From the IMG/VR virus record IMGVR_UViG_2541047931_000002, positions 1 to 31,884 of that record: a stretch of DNA of 31,884 nucleotides; one strand, 5' to 3'. This DNA is from a virus (taxonomy: Duplodnaviria; Heunggongvirae; Uroviricota; Caudoviricetes). Both the position numbers and the translations under genes were made by a program. Below, one piece after another: positions 1-18,013 of this stretch. The notes beneath the pieces are model-generated. The model was given only the letters and a program-made list of their open reading frames with translations. It was not told where the DNA came from and ran no database searches. Positions within the stretch are counted from its first letter, which is position 1. Every line of letters begins with the position of its first letter.

Positions 1-3000
1 CTAATCGTGATGCCTGCAGTGGCTTTCTTCATCACAACAACCAGCAAATCGCTGATACTTGCTGTGGGATACCAGCCATTTACCCACCATGCTGATACAG
101 AAAACTCCAGCGTCATGTCGCCGCGACCAGCAGGCATATCAATAACACCACTGTAAACCAGCGTATTATCCATCGCGGTACGGTTATAAATTTCAGCACC
201 GTTTTTCTTCACTATCAGGCGGCATGACGAATAAGTATCGCTGTTCTCCCGCTCATGTCTGGCACCGCTGAAAGCCACCGCCGGAATAACAATCTGCCGG
301 TTAAACGGCTGATCGTCATAAACCCTGACGGTAATGGTTCCTGATGGCCAACGCTTCGGTGCACGGGAGTCACGAGGGAAAGCCTTACCCACTGTTTTAA
401 CGAGATCGCCTTCAATCTGGTTTGCAGACAGTTTCCCTCTGATGACACAGTTCTCGTTAATGGTGACATTATTGAGCGTGCCGGTATTCGCCGTGATGGC
501 TCCACTGATATCCGCATTGCGGGCTGTCAGCCTGCCATCCGGCGTCAGGGAAAACGTCGGAGGATTGCCGGATGACGTGATGCTCACCGCAAACAGTCGC
601 TTCAGGAACACGTCGTTCATGAACAGCTGATTCCCCTGCGCCACAAACAGCGGCGTGGTGTTGCCGTTCTCCGGGGTAATCATCGCGATACGGTCCGCCT
701 GCAGCAGAATACTGCTCAGCGTCTGACCATCAACATCCTCAATCCCCGCGCCAATCCCGGCCACATAGGGAATACCGTTTTTTGTTTTCTGCACCTTCAG
801 CATATACATGGCATTCAGCTCATTGCGCGTGTCTGACTGAACCCGCTGGATTTGCTGTATGGTCACGGCCTGGTCACCCAGTTTTTTATCCGTGGTCGAG
901 GTAATTTCACTCCCTTTTTTATCCACGTACTGGCGGACCTGTGCTATCTGTCGGGCATTTTCTGACTGCCCCTGGCTGACAGTCTGTGAGATTTCACTGC
1001 TCACCCGGTCCACTTTCTGGCTCACCTGCGCGATGGCCAGTGTCTGGTCCTCATTCTTTTTCGCAACCAGCTGCGTGAGGCTGTTTTCCGCCTCCCCGAT
1101 TTTCCGGGTCACTTCTGCGATATCCGTGTCCATCCGCTGACGGATGTCTTCTTCCAGTTGCGTGACCTCCGTACGCAGCGCTGAAGCATCAATGCGCTCT
1201 TTCAGTGCCTGGCCCAGAAGCGTCTCATCTATCAGCCCCCGGAAAATTTCCAGATACCCTTCACCATCATTGCTGGGCTGCCCGCTGGCTTCCACAAAAG
1301 CAGATTTTCCCACCAGGTTGACGCTTCGCACGTAAAACCAGAAATCCGTCCCCGGCTTAATCCGGCTCCCCTGGACAGTCCACTGACTGCCGGTCCCCAG
1401 ATAACGGGCAGATTTTTCCACCTGTGCTGTGTTCGTGATGCGTTTTTCTGAGAACCAGAATTCAAACTGTACCGTCGGGTCATACACCGCAAGACGCGGG
1501 ACCGCCGTTATCTGAAAATACCCCGGCGTCAGCTCAATGGTGGCGGGTTTTGCAGGTGCGTTAATCCGGAACGATACCGACGCCGGATCGCCCTGCTGTC
1601 CCCGGGCATTTACCGCCCGGACCGTCAGCGTGTAACGCCCCAGCGCCAGCTGCCTGAAGCGGTAAGTGGTTTCCGCCGTCCGGGCCGTGCTGACCAGCCG
1701 CTCACTGCCGTCATCCGCTGTTACGGTCAGACGGAGCAGGAAGCTCACGCCCTTCACCACCTTCGGCGTGTCCCAGCGCGCCAGCACCTGATATTCCCCG
1801 CTGTCTGCGGTGACTTCGGCGGTCAGGTGCTGCACCGCTGGCGGCGTGACACCATTCACCGTGCCGCTCTGGTCGCCGTCAAAGTGCGCTCCGTTATCCA
1901 CGATGGCCTCTTTTTCCGGTACATGCTGCACGGCGGTGATGGCATACGCACCGTCATCGTTCTCCCGGATACTCACACAGCGGAACAGGCGCTGGCGCAG
2001 CGTCGGCAGCTTCAGCCCCCACACGCTGTATTCGGCAACGCCGTCAGGAATACGGCTCACTTTCACCTTCACGCCGTCGGTGACGGACTGGACCTCCACG
2101 CTGACCGGATTCCCACTTCCGTCAACCAGGCTTATCAGCGTGGTGCCGGAGGATGACAGCATGATTTCACGGTCGAGCGTCAGCGTCCGGGTCTGGCTGT
2201 TCACCGCCAGCACGCGACCACCGGTGCTGATACCGGCATAGTCATCATCACAGATTTCAATGACATCGCCCGGCACATGGCGAAGCCCTTCTGCGCCGAC
2301 GCTGAAATCCACGGTCTGCGTTTCCAGCAGTTCTGTTTTAATCAGCCACAGCCCGGCGCGGTGTGCCTGCCCCCGACTGGTACAGCCAAAGGCATCCATC
2401 TTCGTGACGTTACGACCGTAACGGGCAATGGCCTGCGTGTCCTCCACAAGCTCTGTCGCCGTCTCCCAGCCGTTATCCGGGTCAATCCAGTTCACCTCAA
2501 CGGCATTATGGCGGTCCTTCAGGGCGCTGAAGCTGTAGCGGAACGGCGCGCCATCATCCGGCATCACCACATTACTGCGGTTATAGGTCCACACCTTATC
2601 CGACGGTCGGTCCTGCACGAACGTCAGCGTCTGCCCGTTCCATACCGGCATACAGCGCATCGCCGAGCAGAAATCACTGAGAACATCCCACGCCTTACGC
2701 TGTGTGGTCAGGTAGGCATTACAGGAAATGCGCGGCTCCGTGCCACCAAAACCGTCCGGCACCGACTGGTCGCAATTCTGGCCGATGACATACAGCGCCC
2801 ATTTGTCCACATCCGCCGCACCAAGACGTTTACCCATGCCGTAGCGCGGGTGGGTCAGCATATCCCACAGACACCAGGCCATGTTGTTGCTGTATGCTGG
2901 CTTAAACGTTCCGTCCCAGATACCGCTGTATTGCCGCGTCTGCGGGTTATAGTTCGACGGCACCTGCAGAATGCGCCCGCGAAGATGATAATTACGGCTC

Positions 3001-3695
3001 ACCTGCTGGCTGCCGAACTGTTCCGAGTCCACCTGCACGCCGACCAGTGCCGTGTTCGGGTAGCACTGTTTCACATCGATGATTTCGGTGTATGACGACC
3101 AGAGCGTTTTGTTCTGCAGCTGGTCTGTGGTGCTGTCTGGTGTCATCCTGCGCATCCGGATATTAAACGGGCGCGGCGGCAGGTTATCCACCACCACCGA
3201 GGCCAGATACTGCGACGTGGTTTTGCCCTTAATGGTGATGTCTTTTTCCGTCACCCAGCCACCGTTACGCTGTATCTGAACCAGCAGACGGACTTCCGAC
3301 GGATTCCTGTCACCCTTTGAGGTGGTTTCCACCAGTGCCTGTACACCGAAGGTAAAGCGCAGACGGTCGATGTTTGCCGACGTAATGGTGCGGGTGATCG
3401 GCGTGTCATATTTCACTTCCGTACCCAGCACCGTCTCGGAACCGGAGGATTCAAATCCCTCCGGCGGTGACTGCTCCTGCTCGCCTGCCCGGAACACCAC
3501 CGTGACGCCGGAGATATTGGTATTCCCCTCACTGTCCAGCACCGGCGTACTGTTCAGCAGCACGCTTTTTAATCCATCCACCGGACCTTCAATCGGCCCT
3601 TCGCTGATGGCATCAATCACACTCAGCAGTTGCGTGGACTTCAGGTTGTCCTTCGCTTCGCGCGGGGTATGCCCCTTACTGCTTCCTTTGCCCAT
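1..3695 (-). CDS. J: Host specificity protein J (tail tip / central fibre); 3' end cut by window start
   Basis: ATG at 3695 ([24 protein letters not shown]...), GGAG RBS upstream. Frame stays open to position 1, ending ...KKATAGITI, matching lambda gpJ at both ends. No complete ORF was reported because the stop lies outside the window. About 1230 codons, with a coiled-coil insert relative to lambda J. Confidence 0.85.
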
Positions 3696-3717
3696 TCGTC
3701 ATGCTCCATAAACGACA

Positions 3718-3737
3718 AAACCGCCCGGAGGCGGTTT
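3718..3737 (-). terminator. Intercistronic GC hairpin between I and J (possible attenuator)
   Basis: 8-bp stem AAACCGCC / GGCGGTTT with a 4-nt loop, followed on the minus strand by a U-rich stretch UGUCGUUUAU; lies between the I stop (3756) and the J start (3695). Confidence 0.3.
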
Positions 3738-3755
3738 CACATGAAATATTTTGCA

Positions 3756-4403
3756 TCAGCGGCCAATCACCACAACCTGACCACCGTCCCCTTCATCTGC
3801 CGTGCTGATCTCCTGAGAAACCACACGAGACCCCACGCGCATTTCACCGTACAGAACAGGCAGAACATTGCCCTGGGCAACCATGTTATCCAGTGATGAG
3901 AAATAGGTGTTCTGCTTACCGTTATCCGTGCTGGTCGCTGTGGGCGTCCGGGCTTTCGGTGCCAGCATCTGGGCCACACCACCCAGGATCATACTGGCCC
4001 CTGCCGCATACATGCCCGATACAGCCGCGGCACCCAGCCAGCCCACAGGGTTCCACCATGCCACCGCAATCAGCGCCGCCCCCAGCACCACCTGAAACAC
4101 ACCGCCACTTTTAGCTCCCGCCAGACGCGGCACGATGTGGATCACGGCACCATTTGCCAGCGGCTCATTAAGACGGGCAGATAATTCGGTTTCACCTGCA
4201 TCACGCCCGGCAATGCGCACCTGATACCAGCCGTCATTCAGTTTCTGACGAAACGCCGGGAGCTGTGTGGACAACGCCCGGATGGCTTCAGCCCCCGTTT
4301 TTACACGAAGGTCGATGCGGCGGCCAAATCGTTGTAAATCCCCGTAAAGGCAGATGCGTGCCATGCCCGGTGACGCCAGAGGGAGTGTGTGCGTCGCTGC
4401 CAT
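3756..4403 (-). CDS. I: Tail assembly protein I
   Basis: 215-aa ORF MAATHTLPLASPGMARICLYGDLQRFGRRIDLRVKTGAEAIRAL... ending ...ADEGDGGQVVVIGR; recognised as lambda gpI; overlaps the K 3' end as in lambda. Confidence 0.85.
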   Translation of the reverse strand: MAATHTLPLASPGMARICLYGDLQRFGRRIDLRVKTGAEAIRALSTQLPAFRQKLNDGWYQVRIAGRDAGETELSARLNEPLANGAVIHIVPRLAGAKSGGVFQVVLGAALIAVAWWNPVGWLGAAAVSGMYAAGASMILGGVAQMLAPKARTPTATSTDNGKQNTYFSSLDNMVAQGNVLPVLYGEMRVGSRVVSQEISTADEGDGGQVVVIGR

Positions 4404-5044
4404 TTGTCGGTATACCTCTCTCGTTTGCTCAGTTGTTCAGGAATATGGTGCAACAGCTCACCGTCGCCGCAGTAAATGGCGGCATGATTCGGCACCGATG
4501 AACCAAAACAGCACAGCAGCACATCGCCCGGCTGCGCCGCTGACAACGGCACCTGATACAGCCCTGTGGCCTCCAGATTATCCAGATAGAGATTCTGGCC
4601 GTTACACCACCAGTCATCCTCACGATGAAAGTCCGGCATCTCAATCCCCGCCAGATGATAAGCATCCCGGAACAGCGTGTAACAGTCCGTCGCCCCGTGC
4701 TCAAAGCGCCGCCCGGTAAGATGCGGCACACAGCGGAATTTATGAATCTCACCCCGGCAGACCAGCCACCAAGGCAAATCGCTCTGCACCTGCAGCCGCC
4801 TGTCAGCCTCACTCAGCCAGGGCAGGCCACCGGGGTGGCTGTGGACCAGCGCCACAATCTCACCCTGCATCTCTGCCCGCAGCCAGTCCTCCGGCGACAT
4901 CCGGAAATACGCCTCCGGCTCACCGGAGATATTCACGCAGGGAAAATATCTTTCCCCTTCCGGCGTTCTCACCACGAAGCCGCACGACTCCGCTGGCGCA
5001 CATCGCCGGGCGTGCGCCAGAATCGCTGATTCTGTCTGTGTCAT
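4301..5044 (-). CDS. K: Tail assembly protein K (MPN/JAB plus NlpC/P60-like)
   Basis: Frame of ORF 4301..5086, but the start is placed at the internal ATG 5044 (MTQTESAILAHARRCAPAESCGF...HSHPGG...), which matches the lambda gpK N-terminus; the listed start at 5086 is a TTG. Confidence 0.85.
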   Translation of the reverse strand: MTQTESAILAHARRCAPAESCGFVVRTPEGERYFPCVNISGEPEAYFRMSPEDWLRAEMQGEIVALVHSHPGGLPWLSEADRRLQVQSDLPWWLVCRGEIHKFRCVPHLTGRRFEHGATDCYTLFRDAYHLAGIEMPDFHREDDWWCNGQNLYLDNLEATGLYQVPLSAAQPGDVLLCCFGSSVPNHAAIYCGDGELLHHIPEQLSKRERYTDKWQRRTHSLWRHRAWHASAFTGIYNDLAAASTFV

Positions 5045-5048
5045 GGGA

Positions 5049-5747
5049 TTACTGCGAAAGTTTGTTAATGGAAAGGAAGCCGCCAAAGTTGCCGACGTTA
5101 TTGCGAAACTTACAGCCGCTCAGGCATTTGCTGCATTTATCCTTCGTGATATCGGACGTCGGCTGGTCATATTCATCCGCAACCGCCGGACCGTGATAAC
5201 CGCACTCATCACCGCGATAGGTCCAGGTGCAGGTGTTGGCCAGCATGGTACGTCCCGGAAAAACAGCACCATCCGTTTCCGTCGGCGTGGACAGTACAAA
5301 AGAGGCACTCACCGCGCTCAGTTCGCTGCACTGCTCGATGCGCCAGCGGCTGATCACCTCCTGCTCTGGATCGGCTTCGCTGTTTCCGTTGACGAAGTTC
5401 ACCACATCCAGAAAACGGGCGTAAACCTTACGCCTGACCACCGTTCCGCCGACCAGACTCTGCAGGTCTTCCGCCATCCCGGTGACCATGCCGTGCAGAT
5501 TAGAGACTTTCAGCGTTGGCCTTGCACTGGCTCCTTTGCCGTTCATCTCAAATCCACTTCCCTGAATGGGATAGGCCTGATACTGCCGCCCCTGCCAGGT
5601 GACTGGTTCACCTTTTTCGTTCTGCTCATTACAGAAGAAATAACGATCTCCGCCGACCTCTGTCAGATCAATTTCCCAGAGCACGACCAGCGCGGATTGC
5701 TCCGTTTTAGTGCACTCATTGAGTGTTTCCTGCTGTATATCCTGCAT
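5049..5747 (-). CDS. L: Minor tail protein L
   Basis: 232-aa ORF MQDIQQETLNECTKTEQSALVVLWEIDLTEVGG...; recognised as lambda gpL; start overlaps the M stop (ATGA). Confidence 0.9.
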   Translation of the reverse strand: MQDIQQETLNECTKTEQSALVVLWEIDLTEVGGDRYFFCNEQNEKGEPVTWQGRQYQAYPIQGSGFEMNGKGASARPTLKVSNLHGMVTGMAEDLQSLVGGTVVRRKVYARFLDVVNFVNGNSEADPEQEVISRWRIEQCSELSAVSASFVLSTPTETDGAVFPGRTMLANTCTWTYRGDECGYHGPAVADEYDQPTSDITKDKCSKCLSGCKFRNNVGNFGGFLSINKLSQ

Positions 5748-6046
5748 CAGTGAGTGACCTCTTCAAAGGTACAGTTAAAATCGGTATACATGGCATTATC
5801 CGAAATGCTCCACTCCCTGCAGACAACCCGGACAGTCCTGTTGTGTTTTGGCGGACGCCACAAAAAAGCACGAACCCCGGCATGACGGGATAAAAAACTG
5901 TCCAGCGCGGCACGGGAATATTCATCCGTGACACGAAATACCGGTTTAAACGTTTTCAGATCTGCATTCAGACCACCAGCCCGTCGCTGTTCATATCCGT
6001 CACCGAACTTTACCGTAATAACAGATGGCTTTCGTGTCGTCTCCAT
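5747..6046 (-). CDS. M: Minor tail protein M
   Basis: Frame of ORF 5747..6133; start placed at ATG 6046 (METTRKPSVITVKFGDGYEQRRAGGLNADLKT...) with GAGGGG RBS; the listed start 6133 is TTG and would overlap H. Confidence 0.8.
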   Translation of the reverse strand: METTRKPSVITVKFGDGYEQRRAGGLNADLKTFKPVFRVTDEYSRAALDSFLSRHAGVRAFLWRPPKHNRTVRVVCREWSISDNAMYTDFNCTFEEVTH

Positions 6047-6080
6047 CCCCTCGCGGGGGATCCAGTTAAAAACTTCAGAC

Positions 6081-9000
6081 TCAGGCACTGCATAATCCTC
6101 CGTCCCGACGTGATGACTGCATAATTGACACAACCCTGCTGTCGATCAGATCCACCAGTCCCCTGGCTGAGCGCGCATCTATCTCGCCATTGCTCCCTTG
6201 ATTCTGAATGCTGATGTGATACACGGGAGAATAAACAAATCCACCGCCACCATTCACATTTCCAATGGCCCTGACCCCAAGAGAGCCGTCCGCTGCCCGT
6301 GTCAGTGGCATGATTGCTTCAGGCCCGGCCTCGCCCATCAGCCCGGCACCTTTCGCAAAAGCAAAATACGTCGGGGTATCCACAATGGTGTTACTGTAAG
6401 CACTCAGATTTGCCGATGTATAAACACCACCTTTTGCGTTTGCCACTGCACCGGAAAGCCAGTCGCCGACTGTACCAAGCCATCCTCCGGCACCGGACAT
6501 GCTTTTGGAAAGTGACTTCAGCCCGTTAACGATGGCAGCGTTCATCAGAATTTTTGAAACTTCCTGGAGAATTGAACTCCCCCAGTTTCTCCAGTCCACA
6601 ACATTTCCGGCCAGTGCATCGGAAATATTTGATACCAGCCCGTCCATAGTGGAAACGACAGCATCTGCCGCCTGCGAAGCATAATCGGTGGCACTGTCTG
6701 CCCAGTTCGTCAGTCCCTCCTGGAGTCCGGCATTCCAGTTACTGCGTAAAGCATCAGCCTTTGCATAATAATCCTGCTGATCGCTGAGACGCTCTTCCAG
6801 ATATTTTTCATTCAGAGATTTTTCCTGTTTCCACAGGGCTTCTTCAATTTCTCCGGCCTGATACTGTCTCAGTAGCTCGTTATTTTTCTGCTCAAACTCC
6901 TGCCGGATGCTCCACATTTCCTGAAGTCGTTCACGCATCCGTGAGCCTTCACCATATCCCAGTAACTGAGCCTCATTTGATGCTCTGACACTGGCATTAC
7001 TGTCCGCCAGACTGCTCTCATACGCAGCAAGCTGCTCACGAATCTTTTTCTGGTCGATGAGTGCTGCATTCTGCAAAAGCGTTTTTTTCTGCGCTTCTGA
7101 CAGGGTTGATAATTCGCCCTGGCTGACCTGATATTTCATCTTAGCCAGTTCAGTATTCTGCCCTGCCAGTGCTATTTGCTCTTTTTGCTGTTTAATCAGT
7201 TGCTTATAAGTATCTTCTATTTTTTCCGCTTCGGTCTTTTTATGCGCTTTGGGTTTATTTGCCTGGTTATTTCGCCATGCATCCAGTGAGTTATTTATAT
7301 AATTCAGTCTTGCTGTCTGATACGCCTCTCCCACAAAGCCGAGATCATCCGCAGCATAACCCAGGCGGGCACGCTCACGAGCTTCCCCCTTCAGGCGGGA
7401 CAGAGCCAGTTCGCGCTCGCTGTTATTCAGTGCGGTCTGCTGTTTATCATCCAGGGTTGCCTGTGGTAGCCGTAACGGTACATTCACCAGCCCCTGTCGC
7501 TGCTGAAGTAATTCATTACCGAGCCCGAGAAGGCGATTAAACTCGGTATGCTGCCCATTCATGATCAACAGGGACTGATACGCTTTGTTTTGTTCCGCTG
7601 CCTGTTGACGGATCAACGCCACCCGTCGCTCCTCCAGCCCGGCAAGCACATCCTGAATGGATTGCGCTTTGCCCTGCATTTGAGTGAGGCGAGACTGTTC
7701 AACTGCCAGTTGATTTGTTGCTTCTGCAAGCCCTTCTGTGACAGTTTTTACCGACGTCATGTGGTTAATCATAAAACCGTTATCGGTTGTCCAGCCCGGG
7801 TTTGCCAGCACATACTGATAGCCAGCAATTTTTTCCTGTAAGGATTTAATCTTACTTTTCTGCTCGTCAATTAACCTGTTTTGCTCCTTCAGTGCCTGTC
7901 GCGTCTTTTCCTCATTATCTGACGCTTCAGGAAGCGACATTGCCGACGTTTTCTGGCGAATTTCGTCGATTGTTGCGGCATACTGTCGTGCAGATTCTCT
8001 GGCCTGCTCCTGATTCTGATACATCGTGTACCAGGCCGCAGCCCCCAGCATGACGAGTCCCGGCACACCACCAACCAGCCCCAGCGCGCCACTTAATAAA
8101 CGACTCCCCACTGACGTAACATTATTCAGCGTTGTCTGTGCCGCTGTTCTGGCCGCAATATTACGGGTAAGTGACACCTGGGCAGCTGTCAGCTTCGCTT
8201 CTGCTGCGGCCTGCCTTTCGGTACCGCGAGCAGCAACAACCGCCTGTTGCGCACGATAAACCGCCGCACGCGCCCTGGCGGTTGCTATCTGTGTCCCCCG
8301 AAGTTGCACTTCAGCAAGAGCCACTTCGTTTCTGGCTGCAGTAATTAATCCGGCAGTTGCAGATCCAGCAGACGACGCCATATTGCCAAAATATCGGGCT
8401 ACCCCGACGGCAACCAGAGCACCAGCAGCGGTTGCCACGGTGTCAATATTGCCTGCAATACCATTCAGCACACCGGAGAGCGTCTTCGTCACTCCGCTTG
8501 CCTCGTTCGCACCACCAACCCAGGCCATAAAGGCGTTTTCAACTTTGGTTGCAGAGGATGAAACCGTATCAGGCATTGCTGCATATTCATCACGCAACGC
8601 CCCAAGCTGACTAATCAGTGCAGGAACAACCTTATCGGCGGTCAGTTTTCCGTTATCCGCCATGGCCTTCAGATCCTTACGGGCAACCCCCATTCCCGCA
8701 GCCAGCGCACGAATAACACGATCGCCGTTCTCATTCACCGAGTTAAACTCTTCACCGCGCAGCACTCCCTGCGCCAGTGCCTGACTGAACTGCGTGATCA
8801 CCGAACTGGCTTCTGCTGTACTGGCACCGGATAATTTCAGGCCCGTGGAGATCGCCTCGGTGACTTTCAGTACCTCCTCAGAACTGTAACCATACTCCCG
8901 CATGGAAGCTGCAGAACGGGCAAAAAGGCTGGCGTTATCAGAAAACGCCGTCCCCGTTCTCTGGCTGATCGCCATTAATTCACGCTGTGATGACTGAAAA

Positions 9001-9326
9001 TCATCACTGGACTGTGAGGCCTGCTTCAGACGGGCATTTACTGAATTCCACTCATCGGCGAGAGAAATAAGATGACCGGTAGCAAAAGCCCCGGCAAATG
9101 CCCCCGCCATGTTCAGTGCCGAAGATTTAGCTGTATTTATCTGATCCGTCACTTCTGCCAGTGCACGCCGCATTTCACGGGATGCAGCAGCGGACTGTCG
9201 GCCTCCGTTCTGCATGGTACGGTAGTAATCCTGCCCCATACGCGAAGCCCGGGAGATCTCTGACTGGAATGACCGGGAATTTGCCGAGATTTTAATAATC
9301 AGTTCACGTAATGTCGCCACACTCAT
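6081..9326 (-). CDS. H: Tail tape measure protein H
   Basis: 1081-aa ORF with long coiled-coil regions, Gly/Ala-rich hydrophobic segments and a C-terminal region typical of lambda gpH; sits between G-T and M. Confidence 0.9.
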   Translation of the reverse strand: MSVATLRELIIKISANSRSFQSEISRASRMGQDYYRTMQNGGRQSAAASREMRRALAEVTDQINTAKSSALNMAGAFAGAFATGHLISLADEWNSVNARLKQASQSSDDFQSSQRELMAISQRTGTAFSDNASLFARSAASMREYGYSSEEVLKVTEAISTGLKLSGASTAEASSVITQFSQALAQGVLRGEEFNSVNENGDRVIRALAAGMGVARKDLKAMADNGKLTADKVVPALISQLGALRDEYAAMPDTVSSSATKVENAFMAWVGGANEASGVTKTLSGVLNGIAGNIDTVATAAGALVAVGVARYFGNMASSAGSATAGLITAARNEVALAEVQLRGTQIATARARAAVYRAQQAVVAARGTERQAAAEAKLTAAQVSLTRNIAARTAAQTTLNNVTSVGSRLLSGALGLVGGVPGLVMLGAAAWYTMYQNQEQARESARQYAATIDEIRQKTSAMSLPEASDNEEKTRQALKEQNRLIDEQKSKIKSLQEKIAGYQYVLANPGWTTDNGFMINHMTSVKTVTEGLAEATNQLAVEQSRLTQMQGKAQSIQDVLAGLEERRVALIRQQAAEQNKAYQSLLIMNGQHTEFNRLLGLGNELLQQRQGLVNVPLRLPQATLDDKQQTALNNSERELALSRLKGEARERARLGYAADDLGFVGEAYQTARLNYINNSLDAWRNNQANKPKAHKKTEAEKIEDTYKQLIKQQKEQIALAGQNTELAKMKYQVSQGELSTLSEAQKKTLLQNAALIDQKKIREQLAAYESSLADSNASVRASNEAQLLGYGEGSRMRERLQEMWSIRQEFEQKNNELLRQYQAGEIEEALWKQEKSLNEKYLEERLSDQQDYYAKADALRSNWNAGLQEGLTNWADSATDYASQAADAVVSTMDGLVSNISDALAGNVVDWRNWGSSILQEVSKILMNAAIVNGLKSLSKSMSGAGGWLGTVGDWLSGAVANAKGGVYTSANLSAYSNTIVDTPTYFAFAKGAGLMGEAGPEAIMPLTRAADGSLGVRAIGNVNGGGGFVYSPVYHISIQNQGSNGEIDARSARGLVDLIDSRVVSIMQSSRRDGGLCSA

Positions 9327-9336
9327 TCTCCGGACG

Positions 9337-9358
9337 AAAAAAAACCGCCGAAGCGGTT
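9337..9358 (-). terminator. Intrinsic-terminator-like hairpin between T and H
   Basis: Minus-strand RNA AACCGC-UUCG-GCGGUU followed by about 8 U; UUCG tetraloop; located between the T stop (9367) and the H RBS/start (9326). Confidence 0.45.
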
Positions 9359-9366
9359 ATGTTGAC

Positions 9367-10055
9367 TCACTGAGACACTATTAAAAGCGCGTTTTCCAGT
9401 CCAGCAAATGGATCTGATACGCCTTCTGTCTGCTCCTTCTCCCACTGAAGAAGCGCATCATTCAGTGGCACTTTGACCCCCTGCGCACCGTAAACAGCTG
9501 AAACAATCTGGGCAGCCCGGATATCAGCCCGTTCGTCCCCCAGCGGGCTGAACCTGTCAAATTCTGCCCACATCATGATTTCTGATGCGGACATTTCCCG
9601 GCGTAACTCTGACAATGTGCGCCCCATCCTGAGCGCCAGCATCATCAGAAAACGCATCCCCGGAAGCGCTACTTTTTTTTAACCTCGCCGGCATCACTGA
9701 TTAGTTCCAGAGACTGCCGAAGAAGCCGCGCATGCACCGGGCCATACACGGCAATCACCTGTTCACGATCATCCTCTGAAAATACAGGTTGCAGTCCGGT
9801 ATCACACAGAACATCGATGAACAGTTCAACATCCGCTTCCAGATTTCGGCGGGCGCGCTCCGCAACGGATAACGGTGTCTCATCATCTTTTGCTTTAACG
9901 ATCTCCTGCCAGCGCAACCAGGCTTCTGCAGAAGGTTCCCGTAATACAACCGTTGCCCCTTCCCATTCAGGCACATCAACAGTTTTATGGCGAAACCCCG
10001 ACATCGTTGCCAGTGCCAGATTACGGATATTTTTAGTCATCACATCTATCCTCAT
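9367..10055 (-). CDS. Tail assembly chaperone G-T fusion made by programmed -1 ribosomal frameshift
   Basis: The T frame (9367..9657, MRFLMMLALRMGRTLSEL...) is the -1 frame relative to G and is open back to the slippery heptamer A-AAA-AAG at about 9672-9678, which sits directly before the G stop. Predicted junction ...GEVKK-K-VALPGMRFLMM... Confidence 0.7.
9669..10055 (-). CDS. G: Tail assembly chaperone G
   Basis: 128-aa ORF ending ...ISDAGEVKKK immediately upstream of H; position and size match lambda gpG; ends in the slippery run A-AAA-AAG. Confidence 0.8.
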   Translation of the reverse strand: MRIDVMTKNIRNLALATMSGFRHKTVDVPEWEGATVVLREPSAEAWLRWQEIVKAKDDETPLSVAERARRNLEADVELFIDVLCDTGLQPVFSEDDREQVIAVYGPVHARLLRQSLELISDAGEVKKK

Positions 10056-10759
10056 TAACTGACGGTAACAGTGCAGGAAGTAGAGGTCACTTTGTTAACC
10101 GGGCTTGCTGAATCAGAAATCTCGCAGGTATATGCACCCGCATCACCGGATACTGCCGATGCCTTACTGAACGTTGCCGCCGTCTGTCCGGAAACAGGAG
10201 AACCACCTTTCTTCCAGACATAAGAATAAGGCGGCACACCACCCGCAGCCTCAACCGCCATTTCAAGTTTCGATCCGGAAGCAACCCGCAGCGTGCTTTT
10301 TAAATCGACCTTCACTTTCAGCGGCTCTGTCGTCAGCACAGGTTTACCTTTCAGGCGCAGAGAAAACGTTGCAGCCACAACACCATTGGTTCCTGCAGAC
10401 CAGGTATGCTGACGCACCTCTGCCATAAAGGTAAATCCGTTGCCTGACGGAAAAATAACTTTAAAGCCATACGTGGTGTCATTGTCATAGGCACTGCGCA
10501 ACGCGTTCTGGGCAGCATTGAGGTAAAAGTTGCCTGACATGGAAATCTCTGAAGCAGCACCAAGGCCGTTAATATTTTCCTGCTCAACAGAACACAGCGT
10601 GGTGACATCAATATCCTGCTTTTGTCCTGCAGTAAACTGCACCTCTTTGATTGTACAGCTCAGGCCAAGATAGCTGGCAGAATCCAGGGTTTCTGCTGTT
10701 ACCGGTGCAGACGAAATCATAATTTTCGTCAGTTGCGAACGCTCAAAATTAGAGGACAT
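10055..10759 (-). CDS. V: Major tail protein V with C-terminal Ig-like domain
   Basis: Frame of ORF 10055..10810; start placed at ATG 10759 (MSSNFERSQLTKIMISSAPVTAETLD...) with AGGAG RBS; C-terminal Big_2-like segment ...GGVPPYSYVWKKGG...TCEISDSA...; stop overlaps the G start. Confidence 0.85.
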   Translation of the reverse strand: MSSNFERSQLTKIMISSAPVTAETLDSASYLGLSCTIKEVQFTAGQKQDIDVTTLCSVEQENINGLGAASEISMSGNFYLNAAQNALRSAYDNDTTYGFKVIFPSGNGFTFMAEVRQHTWSAGTNGVVAATFSLRLKGKPVLTTEPLKVKVDLKSTLRVASGSKLEMAVEAAGGVPPYSYVWKKGGSPVSGQTAATFSKASAVSGDAGAYTCEISDSASPVNKVTSTSCTVTVS

Positions 10760-10771
10760 ACTCGTCTCCTG

Positions 10772-10797
10772 AAAATAAAAAACCCGCCAGCGGCGGG
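10772..10797 (-). terminator. Intrinsic-terminator-like hairpin just upstream of V
   Basis: Minus-strand CCCGCC-loop-GGCGGG followed by UUUUUUAUUUU; lies between the stop of the 10819..11163 gene and the V RBS. Confidence 0.4.
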
Positions 10798-10818
10798 TGG
10801 GTAAAATCATTAACGACC

Positions 10819-11163
10819 TCAGGCTATTACCTGAAATTCAAGCGTGGCTCTGCTCAGACGGGAGTCAGGATCATACCCCTGCGTTTTAGAAATAACGGAG
10901 GGTGCCAGTTTCCTTACTGCATCAAGCGCCTGCTCACGAATATCATCTGCGTCATCAGGTACTGTCGCCCAGACATCGATCTGCACGGTAATTCTGGATT
11001 CAGCCTGCCCATCAAGCACATCAGATGCCGTGTCAGACACCACAGAAAACACCAGCCACGGCGGAGATACCGCAGGCTTTCCCTCCGTCAGCGGGACCAC
11101 ATAAGGATAAACCTGTCCTCCGGCCAGCTGAGACAACAGGGAATACAGTGTGCCCCCCCTCAT
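10819..11163 (-). CDS. Tail terminator / tail-completion-like protein (DUF3168-type position)
   Basis: 114-aa ORF directly upstream of the major tail gene in an HK97-type gene order; family assignment by position and size only. Confidence 0.5.
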   Translation of the reverse strand: MRGGTLYSLLSQLAGGQVYPYVVPLTEGKPAVSPPWLVFSVVSDTASDVLDGQAESRITVQIDVWATVPDDADDIREQALDAVRKLAPSVISKTQGYDPDSRLSRATLEFQVIA

Positions 11164-11609
11164 TTACTTAAGACCTCATCAATAGCCTGATTCATTCGCT
11201 GTATGGCAACCTGCGCCGCCAGCTCCTCTGTCGTATCGAAAGCCGGGCGAATGAATGGATGCGCGGGCATGTTTATCGTTCCCAGCTCCACAAAGCGCCA
11301 GTAAAATGCATTTCGGGGATCGCTGGCTTTCATGCTGTTATCACTGTTTCCGGTTCGCAGGTTCCGTCCGCGAATGTGGACACCCGAGATAATTTCCCCC
11401 CGACGCTTTGAACGCTGAGTGAGAACAACCACATTTTTCTTCAGTTTCCCGGTTCGCTCCGGCGCACGTTCAACAACTGCATCCCGCATAACTTCAGCAC
11501 CGGCACGGGTGGCATCGCGCAGAACCTTATTGTTTTCTGCCCTGCTGAGCGTCTCCAAATCCCGTGCAATATCCGCCAGGCCGGAAAAATCAAGACTGAA
11601 ATCCATCAC
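11160..11609 (-). CDS. HK97 gp10-family head-tail joining protein
   Basis: 149-aa ORF (MMDFSLDFSGLADIARDLETLSRAENNKVLRDATRAGAEVMRDAVVERAPERTGKLKKN...); ATGA-coupled to its neighbours; typical position. Confidence 0.55.
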   Translation of the reverse strand: MMDFSLDFSGLADIARDLETLSRAENNKVLRDATRAGAEVMRDAVVERAPERTGKLKKNVVVLTQRSKRRGEIISGVHIRGRNLRTGNSDNSMKASDPRNAFYWRFVELGTINMPAHPFIRPAFDTTEELAAQVAIQRMNQAIDEVLSK

Positions 11610-11944
11610 ACATTCCCCTTCAGGCTGCAGAGTATTTCAAGCCGGGTAGCGCGTGCATCCGGTATTGGTGGACCTTCTATACCCAGAATGGCCCCTTTAA
11701 ATGCACCGGTCAGCACTTTCAGACGTGAAGTCGCTGTCACATCGCGCCGGAATCTCATCCAGACTCTGACCGTAGCCTGAGCGGTTTCTGCTCCGCCTGA
11801 GATTATCTCCCTCCCGCTGATACCCTTAACTTCTGCCCATACGGTAGCTCCCTCCGTCACCGTCTCCACCGGATGCCCTGACGGAGAGCGGGCGGTGGTG
11901 ACATTCAGAATAATTACGCGATCACGTAATCTGCCCGCCTGCAT
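11606..11944 (-). CDS. Head closure / head-tail adaptor protein
   Basis: 112-aa ORF in the conserved connector block between major capsid and tail genes. Confidence 0.55.
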   Translation of the reverse strand: MQAGRLRDRVIILNVTTARSPSGHPVETVTEGATVWAEVKGISGREIISGGAETAQATVRVWMRFRRDVTATSRLKVLTGAFKGAILGIEGPPIPDARATRLEILCSLKGNV

Positions 11945-11952
11945 GTCTCCTC

Positions 11953-12270
11953 CTACAAAGGAATAAAACGATAAGGCTCCAGCAGAGAAGAAAAACCAAA
12001 CGGGACTGGTGCCTTGCTGACATCTGAGGAATTTTCCCGGTTTTCGTACCAGTGCCCGACCAGCAACATGAGCGCCAGCAAAACATCATCAGCTATAAGC
12101 ACCCCTTCAGGATCACCTTCCGGCACCGTCTCCTCATAAAGCTTACGGTTGATAAAATTTTCTGCCTTGCGGCAGGCAGCCCGGAAATACAGCATCAGTA
12201 ACTCATCATCAGTTGCATCATCTGTATCAATACGGCACTGCGCCCTGAGTTTTTCCACTATTGCTGCCAT
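11953..12270 (-). CDS. Head-tail connector protein (gp6-like)
   Basis: Frame of ORF 11953..12450; start placed at ATG 12270 (MAAIVEKLRAQCRIDTDDATDDELLMLYFRAACRKAENFINRKLYEE...) with GGAG RBS; the listed start would overlap the capsid gene. Confidence 0.6.
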   Translation of the reverse strand: MAAIVEKLRAQCRIDTDDATDDELLMLYFRAACRKAENFINRKLYEETVPEGDPEGVLIADDVLLALMLLVGHWYENRENSSDVSKAPVPFGFSSLLEPYRFIPL

Positions 12271-12303
12271 CAGAAACTCCTGCCCGCAACACTGTGCGGG
12301 CAT

Positions 12304-12325
12304 AAAAAAACCGCGTCGGCGCGGT
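12304..12325 (-). terminator. Strong intrinsic-terminator-like hairpin after the major capsid gene
   Basis: Minus-strand ACCGCG-CCGA-CGCGGU followed by 7 U, immediately 3' of the capsid stop (12347); a second perfect 8-bp hairpin (12281-12302) follows, then the RBS of the next gene. Confidence 0.5.
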
Positions 12326-12346
12326 CTGTAACTGAACAACGAGTGG

Positions 12347-13564
12347 TTATTTGCCAGTGAGCGCCTTGATGGCTGCCACATCTTCCAGCACACAGTCAAA
12401 ACGATGGAAAGCCAGAAATGCCACCTGATCAAACTCAGCATAACGCTCAACCAGACGTTTCAGTTCCATATAAGTAACGCGGCGAATGATAAAGCGGTTG
12501 AAATCCCCCAGGAAAATGAATTTTTTTCCGGTACCAATCCCGTCAATAGCCTGATCAATAACATAAGGGATCCCCAGCACAGTAGCCGGCGTACCGCCTG
12601 CAATATCCGGCAGCCATAACGGGCGTTTCTGCCCATCCTCCATCTCTTCAATAGTCTGCAATGTGGCATCATTGAATGCCCAGCGGTATTTCGGCCCACC
12701 ACGATATGCCGGATCAATGGCATGTTTCAGGGCATTCATTTCTTTCCAGGTGAAAGCGGCAGAGGCTGCAGTCTGGATGGTTCCCGTCACCGACGCTGCC
12801 AGCCCTTTTGGCTGTAACGGTGATCCCGTTCCGGTCCCCTGAACCAGATATTTTGCCTCTCCACGACCAATACGCTGGGCAATACGGTTTGCCAGATAAG
12901 ATTCAATATCCACCCCACTGTCCTGGAGCAGCTCATTGGACACACGAATTATTTTTGATGACAGCTTTTTAGCCCCCAGAATAGCGGTCCCGAACGTCAC
13001 ATCCTGTTCCGTTGCGGCTGTATTTTCCGCCAGCAGTTCGCCCTCTTCAGTCGTGCCATCAGACGTTGACCAGGTGATATCCTGCCCGGTTGATGTGGTC
13101 AGAAGTTGCGCCACACTGGCAATCCCGCCATAAGCCTTCATGGTGTCAATGATTTTGTTACGCATCTGCGTGGGCACCGTATATCCGCCCTGAGAATCCG
13201 TTGTTACACTCTGAGCCCGCAGTTCACGCATCAGATTACGCTCTTCAGCATTCAGTTCTGCAAATCCGGCACGCAGAAAACGGTTAAATGCCGCAGCGCG
13301 CTTCTCTTCCACCGCCTTTTTCCCGTTCTCCGCCTCATTATTCTGGCGCTCTTCCGGCCCGGACTCATCCACATATGCCTGATCCTGACGGCGCAACTCT
13401 TCTTCACGGGCGATTTGCTCATCCAGCGCATCCAGCTCAGCTTTCGCCCTGTTCCACTCTGCCCGTTGCTCATCAGTCCATGCGTTATCACCAATTTTTT
13501 CATGCAGTGCACGCATATCCTTTGCAATGGTGTTTCGTTTTTGCTTCATCTCATGAAGTTTCAT
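12347..13564 (-). CDS. Major capsid protein, HK97 family
   Basis: 405-aa ORF with N-terminal coiled-coil delta domain (MKLHEMKQKRNTIAKDMRALHEKIGD...) and HK97-fold-like body; follows the prohead protease. Confidence 0.9.
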   Translation of the reverse strand: MKLHEMKQKRNTIAKDMRALHEKIGDNAWTDEQRAEWNRAKAELDALDEQIAREEELRRQDQAYVDESGPEERQNNEAENGKKAVEEKRAAAFNRFLRAGFAELNAEERNLMRELRAQSVTTDSQGGYTVPTQMRNKIIDTMKAYGGIASVAQLLTTSTGQDITWSTSDGTTEEGELLAENTAATEQDVTFGTAILGAKKLSSKIIRVSNELLQDSGVDIESYLANRIAQRIGRGEAKYLVQGTGTGSPLQPKGLAASVTGTIQTAASAAFTWKEMNALKHAIDPAYRGGPKYRWAFNDATLQTIEEMEDGQKRPLWLPDIAGGTPATVLGIPYVIDQAIDGIGTGKKFIFLGDFNRFIIRRVTYMELKRLVERYAEFDQVAFLAFHRFDCVLEDVAAIKALTGK

Positions 13565-13578
13565 CGTCAGTAGTATCC

Positions 13579-14178
13579 TTATGCATTAAGAAGGGTCAAA
13601 AGACGCTCACGCGCCATTCGTTCGTTAACAGCTTTCTTCAGCGCACCACTCGCCCGCGCTTCCTGCCAGGCTTTCATTGAGCGGACACCAGAGTCTGCGT
13701 CCTGATAGGCCGGATATGTCACCGGGCTGACGTCATACAGACGAGAAATGCGCGTGATTTCCCGGATAACAATCCCCTCGTCGTCTTCATACCAGCTCTC
13801 TCCGTCACGGGCGACACGAAACGCGAACGAGGACTGATTAATGTCACCACGCAACATTGGAGACAGCACCAGGTCACAAATAGTCGGAGTATCCGGTGCA
13901 ACAATGTCATAACGTAAACCGCGTTCATCCACCGACAATGACAACGTGCCGGCAGAACTTCGTCCGAGAATGAAATTAGGATCATGATTAAACAAGCCAC
14001 GTACATCATCATTCAGTACATCATCAAAAGCCCCCGGCTTGATGATTTCACGAAATCCCCACAGAGGTTCTGAACGACTGTTAAATACCGAGCCATACCC
14101 CAGAATGTGGGTCGGGGCATTATCATATTGTTCCGCCCGCACCTCCCCGCTGTAACAGCGCGTTTCACGGTCATTCAT
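13579..14178 (-). CDS. Prohead protease, HK97 family
   Basis: 199-aa ORF between portal and capsid; overlaps the portal 3' end by 8 nt. Confidence 0.85.
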   Translation of the reverse strand: MNDRETRCYSGEVRAEQYDNAPTHILGYGSVFNSRSEPLWGFREIIKPGAFDDVLNDDVRGLFNHDPNFILGRSSAGTLSLSVDERGLRYDIVAPDTPTICDLVLSPMLRGDINQSSFAFRVARDGESWYEDDEGIVIREITRISRLYDVSPVTYPAYQDADSGVRSMKAWQEARASGALKKAVNERMARERLLTLLNA

Positions 14179-15397
14179 CGTTCTTTTCCTCTTTGCCTTT
14201 CGTATCTTTAAAGTTATTCAACGGATTTGCTGCATTTACGCTGACCAGCATTTCATCCAGACCGTCAACCGGATTCATATCCTCAAATGCCCTGGCTTCA
14301 TTCCGACTCATCCAGCCATCTGTAATGGCAAAGTGATAGAACTGCGCACGCTCCTGTGGGGTCCCACGGAGCAACCCCGTGAGGTTGAAACGAACGTAAT
14401 ACCCGGCAGCCCGTTCTGTACGGGTAAACAGGCGACGGTTAAGCTCCTGCTCCCAGTTCGCAACCCAGGGCATCATCGTGTAGCGAACAAACTGAATCGC
14501 CTGCTGCGTAATATTCGAAAATGTGGCTTTTTCCAGGTCATTAATCATGTGCGCCGGGACATTAAAAATCCCGGCAATCATCGACCGGTTCAGCTTGGTC
14601 ATATCAATGATCTGAGCATCCACCGGAGAAACTGTCAGAGCGCGGTAATCCAGTTGCGCAGGCAGCAACATGGTTTTATTTTCCTGGCTGCGAAGCGCTG
14701 TCACCGCCCGCTGCCACATATTTTTAAGCCTGCCCCAGCTTTGTTCGTTCAGTTCATTTTTCACAGAAATAATACCGGCAGGACGGGCATTACCGTTAAA
14801 AAAGGCGCTGGTATACTGCTGGCCACTCATTCCCATACCAATGGTTTCAGCATGCTGCATGATCGGGCTCAGTCCCATTTTCTGATTGTTTCCCAGCGCC
14901 CTGATATGGATCATGTCGTCCGGACTTACCGCAAATGCACCCTCTTCGTTATACACCCCGTAAGTATGACGCCCACCGGTGTTAAGTAACGTGGTTTCCC
15001 ATGGCATACAGCATTCAAGGCTGGTAACCTCTCCACGACGATTACGTTTTACCCACGTATAACCATTGCCCCACCCCAGCACATGACGCTGCTTCAGTTC
15101 CCGCCACTTATAGCTGGTCTGCCAGGCATTAGGTTCATCATGAACGAGCCAGAACAACGGATGATCGCGTGCCGGCTGAACATGCTCATTCGTTTTTCGC
15201 ATCACATGCAGGGGCATCTGAGCCACACTGGATGAAATAACATAAATACAGGCATAGACAGCAGCCAGCTTCATGGATGTTTCCGGACTGACATACACAT
15301 CCCGGGCAAAAATATTATCCGTCTCAGCGGCCTCTCCGGTTACCGGAACCGAGGGATTTTCCAGAGGCTCACTGCGAAACAGAGCATCAAGAAGCAT
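14171..15397 (-). CDS. Portal protein, HK97 family
   Basis: 408-aa ORF downstream of the large terminase; AGGAGA RBS; typical size and position. Confidence 0.9.
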   Translation of the reverse strand: MLLDALFRSEPLENPSVPVTGEAAETDNIFARDVYVSPETSMKLAAVYACIYVISSSVAQMPLHVMRKTNEHVQPARDHPLFWLVHDEPNAWQTSYKWRELKQRHVLGWGNGYTWVKRNRRGEVTSLECCMPWETTLLNTGGRHTYGVYNEEGAFAVSPDDMIHIRALGNNQKMGLSPIMQHAETIGMGMSGQQYTSAFFNGNARPAGIISVKNELNEQSWGRLKNMWQRAVTALRSQENKTMLLPAQLDYRALTVSPVDAQIIDMTKLNRSMIAGIFNVPAHMINDLEKATFSNITQQAIQFVRYTMMPWVANWEQELNRRLFTRTERAAGYYVRFNLTGLLRGTPQERAQFYHFAITDGWMSRNEARAFEDMNPVDGLDEMLVSVNAANPLNNFKDTKGKEEKNDE

Positions 15398-15548
15398 GTT
15401 TTCTCCTCATGGACACCACCAGTGCATAAAGCAGCAACAAACAGCCCGACAGCATCAGAGACGCTGGCAGACCTGCATACAGATAAACGCCAGCAGTGAG
15501 CAAACCGAAACCGATCAGCCCGGTCATATCAGTAATAAGCTGTTTCAC
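15387..15548 (-). CDS. Small hydrophobic protein (about 53 aa) between large terminase and portal
   Basis: Unlisted ORF (below 60 aa) translated by hand: (V/M)KQLITDMTGLIGFGLLTAGVYLYAGLPASLMLSGCLLLLYALVVSMRRKHAS. GTG start overlaps the TerL stop, GAGGA about 12 nt upstream; two hydrophobic stretches; fills an otherwise unexplained 150-bp gap. Confidence 0.3.
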   Translation of the reverse strand: MKQLITDMTGLIGFGLLTAGVYLYAGLPASLMLSGCLLLLYALVVSMRRKHAS

Positions 15549-17302: not shown

Positions 17303-17784
17303 CAGTCTCTCGCTTTTAAAAGCTCTGCCAGCGGATCAACATTATCCGGTCCGGCGGTATTTACTTTTGCCCGGCTTGCCGGTGACATACCAAATTCTGC
17401 AAGCATCGCCCGGATCCGCTTCCAGGCATCCGCTTTCATCGCAGCAGCCGGGTGTGCCTTAATCAGCACATCACCGTTCTGCGTTTCCGAGCGGTAGGTG
17501 TACCCCTCAACATCGAGTGTTTCGCAGTGATGCCGGTATTCGGTATAGGCTTCCACCAGTAGCTCAAGCGCACGCGCATCAAGCTGAGAAATGATCCCTT
17601 CCGCATTCAGCTCTTCCGCCATTCGCCTGAACCAGTACTTCCCCTGCGCCCCTAAATGTTGCGGAATTTTAGGGAGACCTTTTTCATCCTTTTTAGCGGT
17701 TTTTTTGAGGTCTTTAACTGGCCGCTTTGAGGGGTTGCCTCGTATCAAATGCAGGCGTGGCGGGATTTTCGGGGGTCCAGACAT
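17302..17784 (-). CDS. Terminase small subunit (P27 / HK97-like)
   Basis: 160-aa ORF MSGPPKIPPRLHLIRGNPSKRPVKDLKK... directly upstream of TerL; an HNH endonuclease is nearby, as in HK97-like cos phages. Confidence 0.8.
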   Translation of the reverse strand: MSGPPKIPPRLHLIRGNPSKRPVKDLKKTAKKDEKGLPKIPQHLGAQGKYWFRRMAEELNAEGIISQLDARALELLVEAYTEYRHHCETLDVEGYTYRSETQNGDVLIKAHPAAAMKADAWKRIRAMLAEFGMSPASRAKVNTAGPDNVDPLAELLKARD

Positions 17785-18013
17785 AATCGGTTTTACCTAT
17801 CAATCATTTAATCACATTCCAAAAAAAAGTTTTCGAACCTGCGGCGATGCGAGGAAAGGTCAGGCGGCGGTACTGAGCAGCCTGGGTTGCAGAGATTTGA
17901 TCCCCCCCCTCCCCCTTGAAGATGGCGGCAAAAAGCAGATACTGGCCACCCATCAGGATGCTCAGCATGGTGTATTCAGTTAATCTCAATAAATAAAAGA
18001 TGGAGTCTAAGAA

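Follow-up and report, generated by a model that had tools for sequence, protein, structure and literature searches.

The DNA analyzed here (the window) is the whole 31,884-nucleotide (nt) stretch of IMG/VR virus record IMGVR_UViG_2541047931_000002. It is a lambdoid Escherichia coli (E. coli) phage or prophage that shares 99.6% identity with Escherichia phage PhiR49_2 between positions 3000 and 13600. The late genes lie on the minus strand, in an order that runs from the terminase genes through the head, connector and tail genes to J, and a Q-type antiterminator gene is found upstream of them on the same strand (Table 1). The early region holds hok/sok, a cI-like repressor gene and DicF. We focus on four short hairpins, each followed by a T-run, that occupy four junctions of the late operon: between the major capsid gene and the connector gene, between a tail-completion gene and the major tail gene V, between T and the tape measure gene H, and between I and J. 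We favour the reading that these are intrinsic terminators, which Q-modified RNA polymerase would pass and which would stop unmodified polymerase in the lysogen.

All four junctions share the same cassette: a GC stem, a loop, a T-run, a ribosome-binding site and the start codon of the next gene. The stems are 6-8 base pairs (bp) long with 4-6 G-C pairs, the loops measure 3-4 nt, and the free energy of folding (dG) ranges from -8.0 to -12.0 kcal/mol. From the end of the stem to the next start codon the distance is 22-24 nt, or 37 nt at the capsid/connector junction owing to an intervening second hairpin. The hairpin at I/J is followed by the ribosome-binding site of J and ATG 3695, the one at T/H by GGAG and GTG 9320, and the one upstream of V by AGGAG and ATG 10759. 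A sequence-only reading of this DNA had described these four hairpins and three more, located after Q, hok and the cI-like repressor gene; all seven proved to be in place, each with the fold described. Its claim that terminator-like hairpins punctuate the intercistronic gaps of an operon with a Q antiterminator gene also held (Antiterm, E = 6e-55).

Two of the junctions have further structure. At I/J, the stem can be extended by A-U pairs to 3738-3717, and the T-run that follows (TTTGTCGTTT) is interrupted, which gives the lowest T-tail score of the four (3.23). The capsid/connector hairpin lies 20 nt 3' of the major capsid stop codon, and its T-run comprises 7 T (12310-12304), the first 3 of which are paired in the stem. 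The second perfect hairpin that had been reported behind it is present, 8 bp long, at 12302-12281. This second hairpin abuts the AGGAG ribosome-binding site of the connector gene (ATG 12270), and a Phytobacter prophage (L088, 8447-8470) retains it with a different loop. The two hairpins form a tandem pair flanking an AU-rich linker, and this linker could be an RNA processing site.

The position of one hairpin relative to V depends on where V starts. The description of this hairpin as lying just upstream of V is right if V starts at ATG 10759, and wrong if the longest open reading frame (ORF), from ATG 10810, is taken. That longest ORF, the long form annotated in PhiR49_2, would enclose the hairpin in coding sequence. 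ATG 10759 has an AGGAG ribosome-binding site before it, and residue 1 of HK97 gp12 aligns with this start; thus, the deposited V annotation probably starts 17 codons too early. H, in turn, probably starts at GTG 9320 and not at ATG 9326, the start of its longest ORF. Read from GTG 9320, H begins with VATLRELI, which aligns with MATLRELI in a Superficieibacter prophage (L091), and a GGAG ribosome-binding site lies 9 nt upstream. It is worth adding that the hairpin upstream of V contains, at 10784-10796 on the minus strand, GCTGGCGG, which has 1 mismatch to Chi (GCTGGTGG); this match is probably a coincidence.

The number and the placement of the four hairpins were compared with chance expectation. 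A strict scan, requiring a perfect stem of at least 5 bp, a hairpin dG of at most -7 kcal/mol and a T-tail score of at least 3, returned 10 hits in the whole window. Its hits within the late region (3000-17800) number four, all of them in sense orientation and intergenic; the antisense strand has none. Dinucleotide-preserving shuffles of the late region (300 in total) gave a mean of 0.39 hits, and none of the 300 reached 4. Moreover, only 2.1% of the late structural region is intergenic, and the four hits coincide with its four largest gaps (60 nt at I/J, 46 nt at T/H, 59 nt between the tail-completion gene and V, and 76 nt at the capsid/connector junction; all others are of 14 nt or less). 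We therefore take these gaps to exist because of the hairpins.

Another explanation would be functionless inverted repeats that arose by chance: short GC-rich palindromes are common, and a looser general scan lists 25 terminator-like sites in 1-16000 against 14.5 expected. For the four late hairpins, however, we give this explanation practically no probability. The strict scan with its 4 sense and 0 antisense hits, the shuffles, the location of four of four sites inside the intergenic 2.1% of the region, and the conservation across genera with compensatory changes described below effectively refute a chance origin. The four late hairpins are thus confirmed as real, beyond chance. As regards terminator prediction, the general scan of the window lists six of the seven hairpins, I/J being absent from its sites, and the four late ones are all recovered by the strict scan. 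No Rfam family was matched at the four late sites, either at gathering thresholds across the whole window or at E <= 1 across 3600-12500.

The hairpins' role had been made to turn on their conservation in related phages, and we observed this conservation in HK97, in lambda, in prophages of other genera and in about 80 close IMG/VR relatives. In the close relatives, substitutions occur in the loops and flanks and not in the stems; at I/J, for example, the loop and flanks vary among 20 sequence variants, none of which alters a stem base. At greater distance, a one-genome-per-species scan with the V protein yielded four usable prophages, from Phytobacter (L088), Symbiopectobacterium (L089), the L090 isolate and Superficieibacter (L091), so that covariation is read from few sequences. 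The structural proteins of these prophages are 23-89% identical to those of the window. Each carries a hairpin and T-run, with changed stem sequences, at the junctions covered by its contig, which in Phytobacter ends before H and covers two of the four.

Upstream of the major tail gene, an ACCCGC-type hairpin is present in HK97, Phytobacter, Symbiopectobacterium, Superficieibacter and L090, and the stem is kept in five genera. The loops differ there, the upstream flank has diverged beyond alignment, and the Phytobacter hairpin shows one C-G to G-C swap. As the differing loop lengths misregistered the automatic cross-genus alignment upstream of V, its pair counts were discarded and individual folds were used. 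At I/J, five phages have four different stems (ACCGCC, AGCCACC, GAAGCCAGC and GCCGCC), and in their alignment three of six pairs are compensatory, with both sides changed, and none is broken. A hairpin after the capsid gene is also found in Phytobacter, Symbiopectobacterium, Superficieibacter and lambda. In all orthologs the T-run is conserved alongside the hairpin. Because a hairpin that merely protects RNA would not need a T-run, this conservation points to termination rather than to RNA stabilisation.

The same elements have been annotated before. The HK97 GenBank record, NC_002167, carries a "putative terminator" at the same four junctions (Table 1). AACCCGCC agat GGCGGGTT, which precedes the major tail gene of HK97, is a clear ortholog of the window's ACCCGCC gct GGCGGGT, and ahead of H HK97 has GACCCGCT atca AGCGGGTT, again with a core of the ACCCGC type. 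In contrast, the stems that HK97 carries behind its capsid gene and ahead of J are unrelated in sequence to those of the window, and HK97 has annotated terminators that the window lacks, at the portal/protease boundary, after the major tail gene and before I. Lambda, whose late operon is Q-dependent like that of the window, carries at I/J (15465-15480) a hairpin whose stem is identical; one loop base differs (tgcg versus tccg), and there are a few changes in the flanks. Late hairpins are also present in lambda after D, E, J and lom, and its capsid region has them both before and after E. The four hairpins of the window therefore belong to an already-known class, the intra-operon intrinsic terminators of lambdoid late operons, annotated in HK97 and present in lambda. 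A further lambda site (4485-4504, sense) consists of a perfect AACCCGC ctatgc GCGGGTT followed by TTCTTTT, located in coding sequence at the overlap or start of genes B and C; its core is that of the window's three non-late hairpins.

Table 1. Hairpins and genes of the window, and corresponding features in related genomes (positions refer to the window unless another genome is named).
Feature	Position	Strand	Sequence or remark
I/J hairpin	stem 3735-3720, element 3709..3738	-	ACCGCC-tccg-GGCGGT, then TTTGTCGTTT
T/H hairpin	stem 9358-9343, element 9335..9358	-	AACCGC-ttcg-GCGGTT, then T8
Hairpin between tail-completion gene and V	stem 10798-10782, element 10772..10798	-	ACCCGCC-gct-GGCGGGT, then TTTTTATTTT (T5AT4)
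Capsid/connector hairpin	stem 12327-12308, element 12304..12327	-	AGACCGCG-ccga-CGCGGTTT, 8 bp, then TTTT
Second capsid/connector hairpin	12281..12302	-	TGCCCGCA cagtgt TGCGGGCA, perfect 8 bp, without T-run
Hairpin after Q	stem 23005-22986, element 22980..23005	-	AACCCGC cgccga GCGGGTT + T-run
Hairpin after hok	stem 25719-25702, element 25692..25719	-	AACCCGC ttcg GCGGGTT + T-run; ~70 nt 3' of hok stop codon
Hairpin after cI-like repressor gene	stem 29585-29603, element 29584..29607	+	(A)ACCCGC attcatt GCGGGT(T) + TTTT; directly 3' of stop codon
Strongest terminator in window	21834-21813	-	9-bp stem, dG -19.3, not CCGC type; 3' end of Rfam STnc100 match
Terminator-like hairpin before holin S	20753-20725	-	12-bp stem + T-run, not CCGC type; directly upstream of holin S ribosome-binding site (ATG 20686)
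Q-type antiterminator gene	23086-23907	-	Pfam PF03589 Antiterm, E = 6e-55; upstream of late genes
Small terminase	17302-17784	-	
Large terminase	15545-17302	-	
Portal	14171-15397	-	
Protease	13579-14178	-	
Major capsid protein	12347-13564	-	HK97-type
Head-tail connector	11953-12270	-	gp6-like
Adaptor and two tail-completion genes	down to 10819	-	
V	10055-10759	-	major tail gene
G	9669-10040	-	
T	9367-9657	-	
H	6081-9320	-	tape measure
M, L, K	between H and I	-	
I	3756-4304	-	
J	from 3695 downward	-	
HK97 putative terminator after major head gene (gp5)	HK97 5192-5213		
HK97 putative terminator, tail terminator gene/major tail gene	HK97 6692-6719		
HK97 putative terminator directly before H	HK97 8398-8422		after gp15 moron; hairpin at 8397-8416
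HK97 putative terminator directly before J	HK97 15107-15129		after gp22 and gp23 morons
HK97 (L086) T/H insert	HK97 8203-8422		~0.25 kb, with gp15
Symbiopectobacterium prophage (L089) T/H insert	L089 11437-13054		1.6 kb; antisense 286-aa gene + sense 134-aa lipoprotein-like gene
Superficieibacter prophage (L091) T/H insert	L091 11162-12090		1 kb; sense 296-aa gene
kb, kilobases; aa, amino acids.

Next, we considered what surrounds the hairpins in the relatives. A moron is an accessory unit made of a promoter, a gene and a terminator, as defined for HK97, with gp15 as the founding example. In the relatives, T/H is a recurrent insertion site for accessory genes, with inserts in HK97, Symbiopectobacterium and Superficieibacter (Table 1), and these always lie upstream of the hairpin that adjoins H. 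Despite the DNA inserted between T and the hairpin, the latter stays 15-25 nt upstream of H. In one close relative (L035) the end of T has been replaced and the T/H hairpin kept, while relatives with a different capsid module have a different CCGC hairpin after the capsid gene, homology resuming at GCGGTTTTTT. As the hairpin adjoins H whatever has been inserted or replaced upstream, the hairpins would belong with the downstream essential gene. From this persistence beside H we propose that the T/H hairpin may serve as the terminator of inserted accessory genes and shield the genes from H to J. It also suggests that accessory genes may borrow a resident terminator rather than bring their own. 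HK97 carries gp15 upstream of its T/H hairpin and gp22/gp23 upstream of its I/J hairpin, whereas in the window the hairpin stands alone at both. Indeed, the window's junctions do not contain morons: their gaps of 46-76 nt hold only the hairpin or hairpins, with no accessory gene and no promoter-like site.

This association with the downstream gene is also what would be seen if the hairpins were RNA elements of a processed late transcript, either protecting 3' ends from exonuclease or, as a 5' hairpin with a U-rich leader, protecting or insulating the ribosome-binding site. We consider this rather improbable, and equally so its corollary that mRNA stability or translation would be segment-specific. 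The fixed spacing to the next start codon (22-24 nt, and 37 nt at capsid/connector) would fit such elements, as would the way the hairpin travels with the downstream gene when upstream DNA is replaced, in L035 and in the alternative capsid modules; the tandem pair at the capsid gene even resembles a possible cleavage site flanked by a 3' cap and a 5' cap. However, the T-run, a hallmark of termination that protection does not need, is kept in all orthologs. In addition, neither an Rfam match nor any trace of a conserved processing site was found, and the most highly expressed gene, that of the major capsid protein, lacks such an element on its upstream side, where the gap is of 14 nt.

We therefore return to the terminators. 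The four hairpins have what is expected of intrinsic terminators, namely a GC stem of about 5-14 bp with a short loop (3-8 nt), a 3' U-tract and a sense orientation outside coding sequence, and the Q-type antiterminator gene upstream on the same strand is what is expected of a Q-dependent operon. Our model, to which we assign a probability of about 0.55, is that they are intrinsic terminators passed by Q-modified polymerase and stopping unmodified polymerase in the lysogen. Such intrinsic (Rho-independent) terminators would divide the late operon into head genes, connector and tail-completion genes, tail tube and chaperone genes, tape measure and tip genes, and J. During lytic growth, Q-modified RNA polymerase would read through, so that the sites would be largely transparent to late transcription. 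In the lysogen, unmodified polymerase would be stopped, that is, both spurious transcripts and the transcripts of morons inserted at the junctions would end there, and the structural genes would be kept silent.

We infer the termination, the Q read-through and the insulating role, the read-through from what is generally known of processive antitermination. This mechanism carries polymerase past multiple terminators whatever their sequence; in one system, resistance to it was confined to very long stems (PMC10325885). Because antitermination is sequence-independent and the stems here are short, Q read-through would be the best explanation. Several observations weigh on the other side. The stem-length result comes from a Gram-positive conjugation system, not from Q (PMC10325885). 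The interrupted T-run at I/J may make this site a weak terminator. Inside the late region there is no excess of promoter-like sites that would need insulation (9 against 11 expected). Lambda has no hairpin at U/V and T/H, where its genes abut or overlap, and for this reason hairpins at these two junctions are, by this comparison, not essential to the design of a tail operon. Our literature searches returned no directly usable 3'-end or transcript map of a lambdoid late operon; a paper on Hfq-bound prophage small RNAs covers the region downstream of pR', not the tail genes (PMC4104026).

If the terminators were instead leaky during lytic growth, they would act as attenuators that lower late mRNA stepwise and so set the stoichiometry of the structural proteins, as the sequence-only reading had suggested alongside a role in RNA stability. 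Both roles are among those discussed in print (PMC8022706). Intra-operon terminators are noted as common in the late operons of P22-like phages. In one of these, phage L, predicted Rho-independent terminators lie inside a late operon for which a single promoter is thought likely; their roles are stated as unknown, and two possible ones are offered, partial termination and the stopping of non-antiterminated transcription (PMC8022706). We regard attenuation in the window as unlikely. It would suit the capsid hairpin, which precedes the low-copy connector genes, and the T/H hairpin, which precedes the low-copy H, M, L, K, I and J; the same possibility has been printed for phage L (PMC8022706), and in HK97 and lambda, too, the major capsid gene is followed by a hairpin. 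However, a conserved hairpin lies directly before V and none follows it, the V-G gap being of 14 nt. As V encodes the most abundant tail protein, a step-down before it would oppose the required ratios. More generally, the genes 3' of the hairpins (connector, V, H and J) share no common abundance class, a pattern that the stoichiometry proposal fits poorly. Q-type antitermination is, moreover, described as sequence-independent and the stems are short, and lambda builds a similar tail without hairpins at U/V and T/H.

Having favoured terminators stopping unmodified polymerase, we examined whether the likeness of their stems denotes a common origin. The sequence-only reading had taken the hairpins for a family with an AACCCGC...GCGGGTT core and for a repeated element of this phage. 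Only the three sites beyond the late operon have this exact core; what unites the four late ones is a shorter ACC(C)GC/GCGG(G)T theme. As to a family, a CCGC core in the 5' arm is over-represented: of the window's 10 terminator-like sites, 7 have it, compared with 5 of 52 returned by the same scan over 200 kb of E. coli K-12 (p = 1.5e-4) and 14 of 65 from HK97, lambda and three prophages (p = 0.004). With the post hoc choice of motif taken into account, a permutation gave P = 2e-4. Similarly, CCGC-N3-8-GCGG occurs 15 times in the window against 3.7 +/- 1.9 expected, 8 of the 15 being intergenic hairpins. Among 30 late-operon hairpins of the window and five relatives, 15 carry the ACC(C)GC...GCGG(G)T core with a T-run, against 5 of 52 K-12 terminators. 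The bias towards the CCGC core is statistically real and unexplained; part of it is inherited through orthology.

Beyond the core, the family claim does not extend. The loops and flanks of the hairpins are unrelated, the likeness being confined to the 6-7 nt stem arms and the T-run, and each hairpin has an ancient ortholog of its own. A common TGAGTCA upstream of two hairpins was considered and rejected, as it consists of a stop codon plus four bases and is not significant. Because each late hairpin has its own positional ortholog elsewhere, in lambda, HK97 or prophages of other genera, the late hairpins are old residents and not recent copies made within this genome. We conclude from these comparisons that the hairpins are not a repeated element of the phage.

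A related possibility is that the hairpins are copies of a repeated or mobile element, or linkers whose CCGC...GCGG-T-run microhomology drives module exchange and the capture of accessory genes. We give this very little credence, and hardly more to the proposal that the core is a conserved microhomology or docking site promoting head/tail module exchange and accessory-gene capture, which would make the hairpins linkers as well as terminators. The enrichment of the core in the window over K-12 and over the other phages and prophages, with its permutation P of 2e-4, and the 15 occurrences of CCGC-N3-8-GCGG against 3.7 would agree with such a role. So would the capsid-module breakpoint, which falls within the hairpin at GCGGTTTTTT, and the accessory genes inserted at T/H and I/J in relatives. 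Against it stand the lack of likeness beyond stem arms and T-run, the separate positional orthologs in other phages and the location of the breakpoints. We mapped 182 internal homology breakpoints from 80 IMG/VR relatives. Most of them lie within J, I, H or the large terminase gene, or at the connector/adaptor boundary; 11 of the 182 are at the capsid hairpin, 2 at T/H, 1 near I/J and none upstream of V. Pile-ups at the connector/adaptor boundary (11950-11999, 19 endpoints) and in the 3' part of the large terminase gene (15600-15649, 25 endpoints) exceed any hairpin junction. The similarity between the window and lambda also shifts at M/L, a junction without a hairpin. The recombination-linker reading was therefore set aside: apart from the 11 of 182 at the capsid hairpin, breakpoints do not gather at the hairpins.

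Two further sense-strand terminators lie on the path of the late transcript, in addition to the seven of the sequence-only reading: the hairpins at 21834-21813 and at 20753-20725 (Table 1). The latter repeats the layout of the four structural junctions, a terminator followed by a ribosome-binding site, with another type of stem. The former closes an Rfam STnc100 match (21804-21993, minus strand, 132 bits) that has the Q gene and its tRNAs on one side and the lysis genes on the other. This match may represent a leader RNA made from the late promoter, comparable to lambda 6S RNA. The hairpin at 22980-23005, which lies 80 nt 3' of the Q stop codon and upstream of two tRNA genes, had been labelled tR'; if STnc100 is the late leader, then that hairpin would not be tR'. 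By eye we found no convincing promoter after Q or upstream of STnc100, and we treat the tR' label as putative.

The discovery value of the four hairpins is small, since lambda has the same intra-operon terminators and their annotation in HK97 dates from 2000; the HK97 genome paper is reportedly that of Juhala et al. 2000, cited in PMC4104026 and PMC3594210. What the window adds is four clean, empty junctions without accessory genes, which could separate insulation in the lysogen from attenuation in the lytic cycle.

Among known systems, the moron terminators of HK97 and of the Symbiopectobacterium and Superficieibacter prophages occupy the same positions as the window's T/H and I/J hairpins. 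Relative to these moron-bearing junctions the window represents the empty state, and about 80 relatives conserve the hairpin at junctions that are likewise empty. Another comparison is with the PeSL cassettes of T4-type phages, repeated stem-loops said to have been proposed to mediate module shuffling. As in those phages, short similar stem-loops stand at gene boundaries of a mosaic genome; unlike PeSL cassettes, the window's hairpins have no associated promoter, occur in few copies, are alike in the stem only and are not where breakpoints cluster. Late gene clusters of phage SPP1 are delimited by terminators, a statement similar to that made for phage L (PMC6316719). Both SPP1 and the P22-like phage L thus likewise have terminators at the ends of functional blocks of late genes; as these phages and their sequences are unrelated to the window, the likeness is architectural only.

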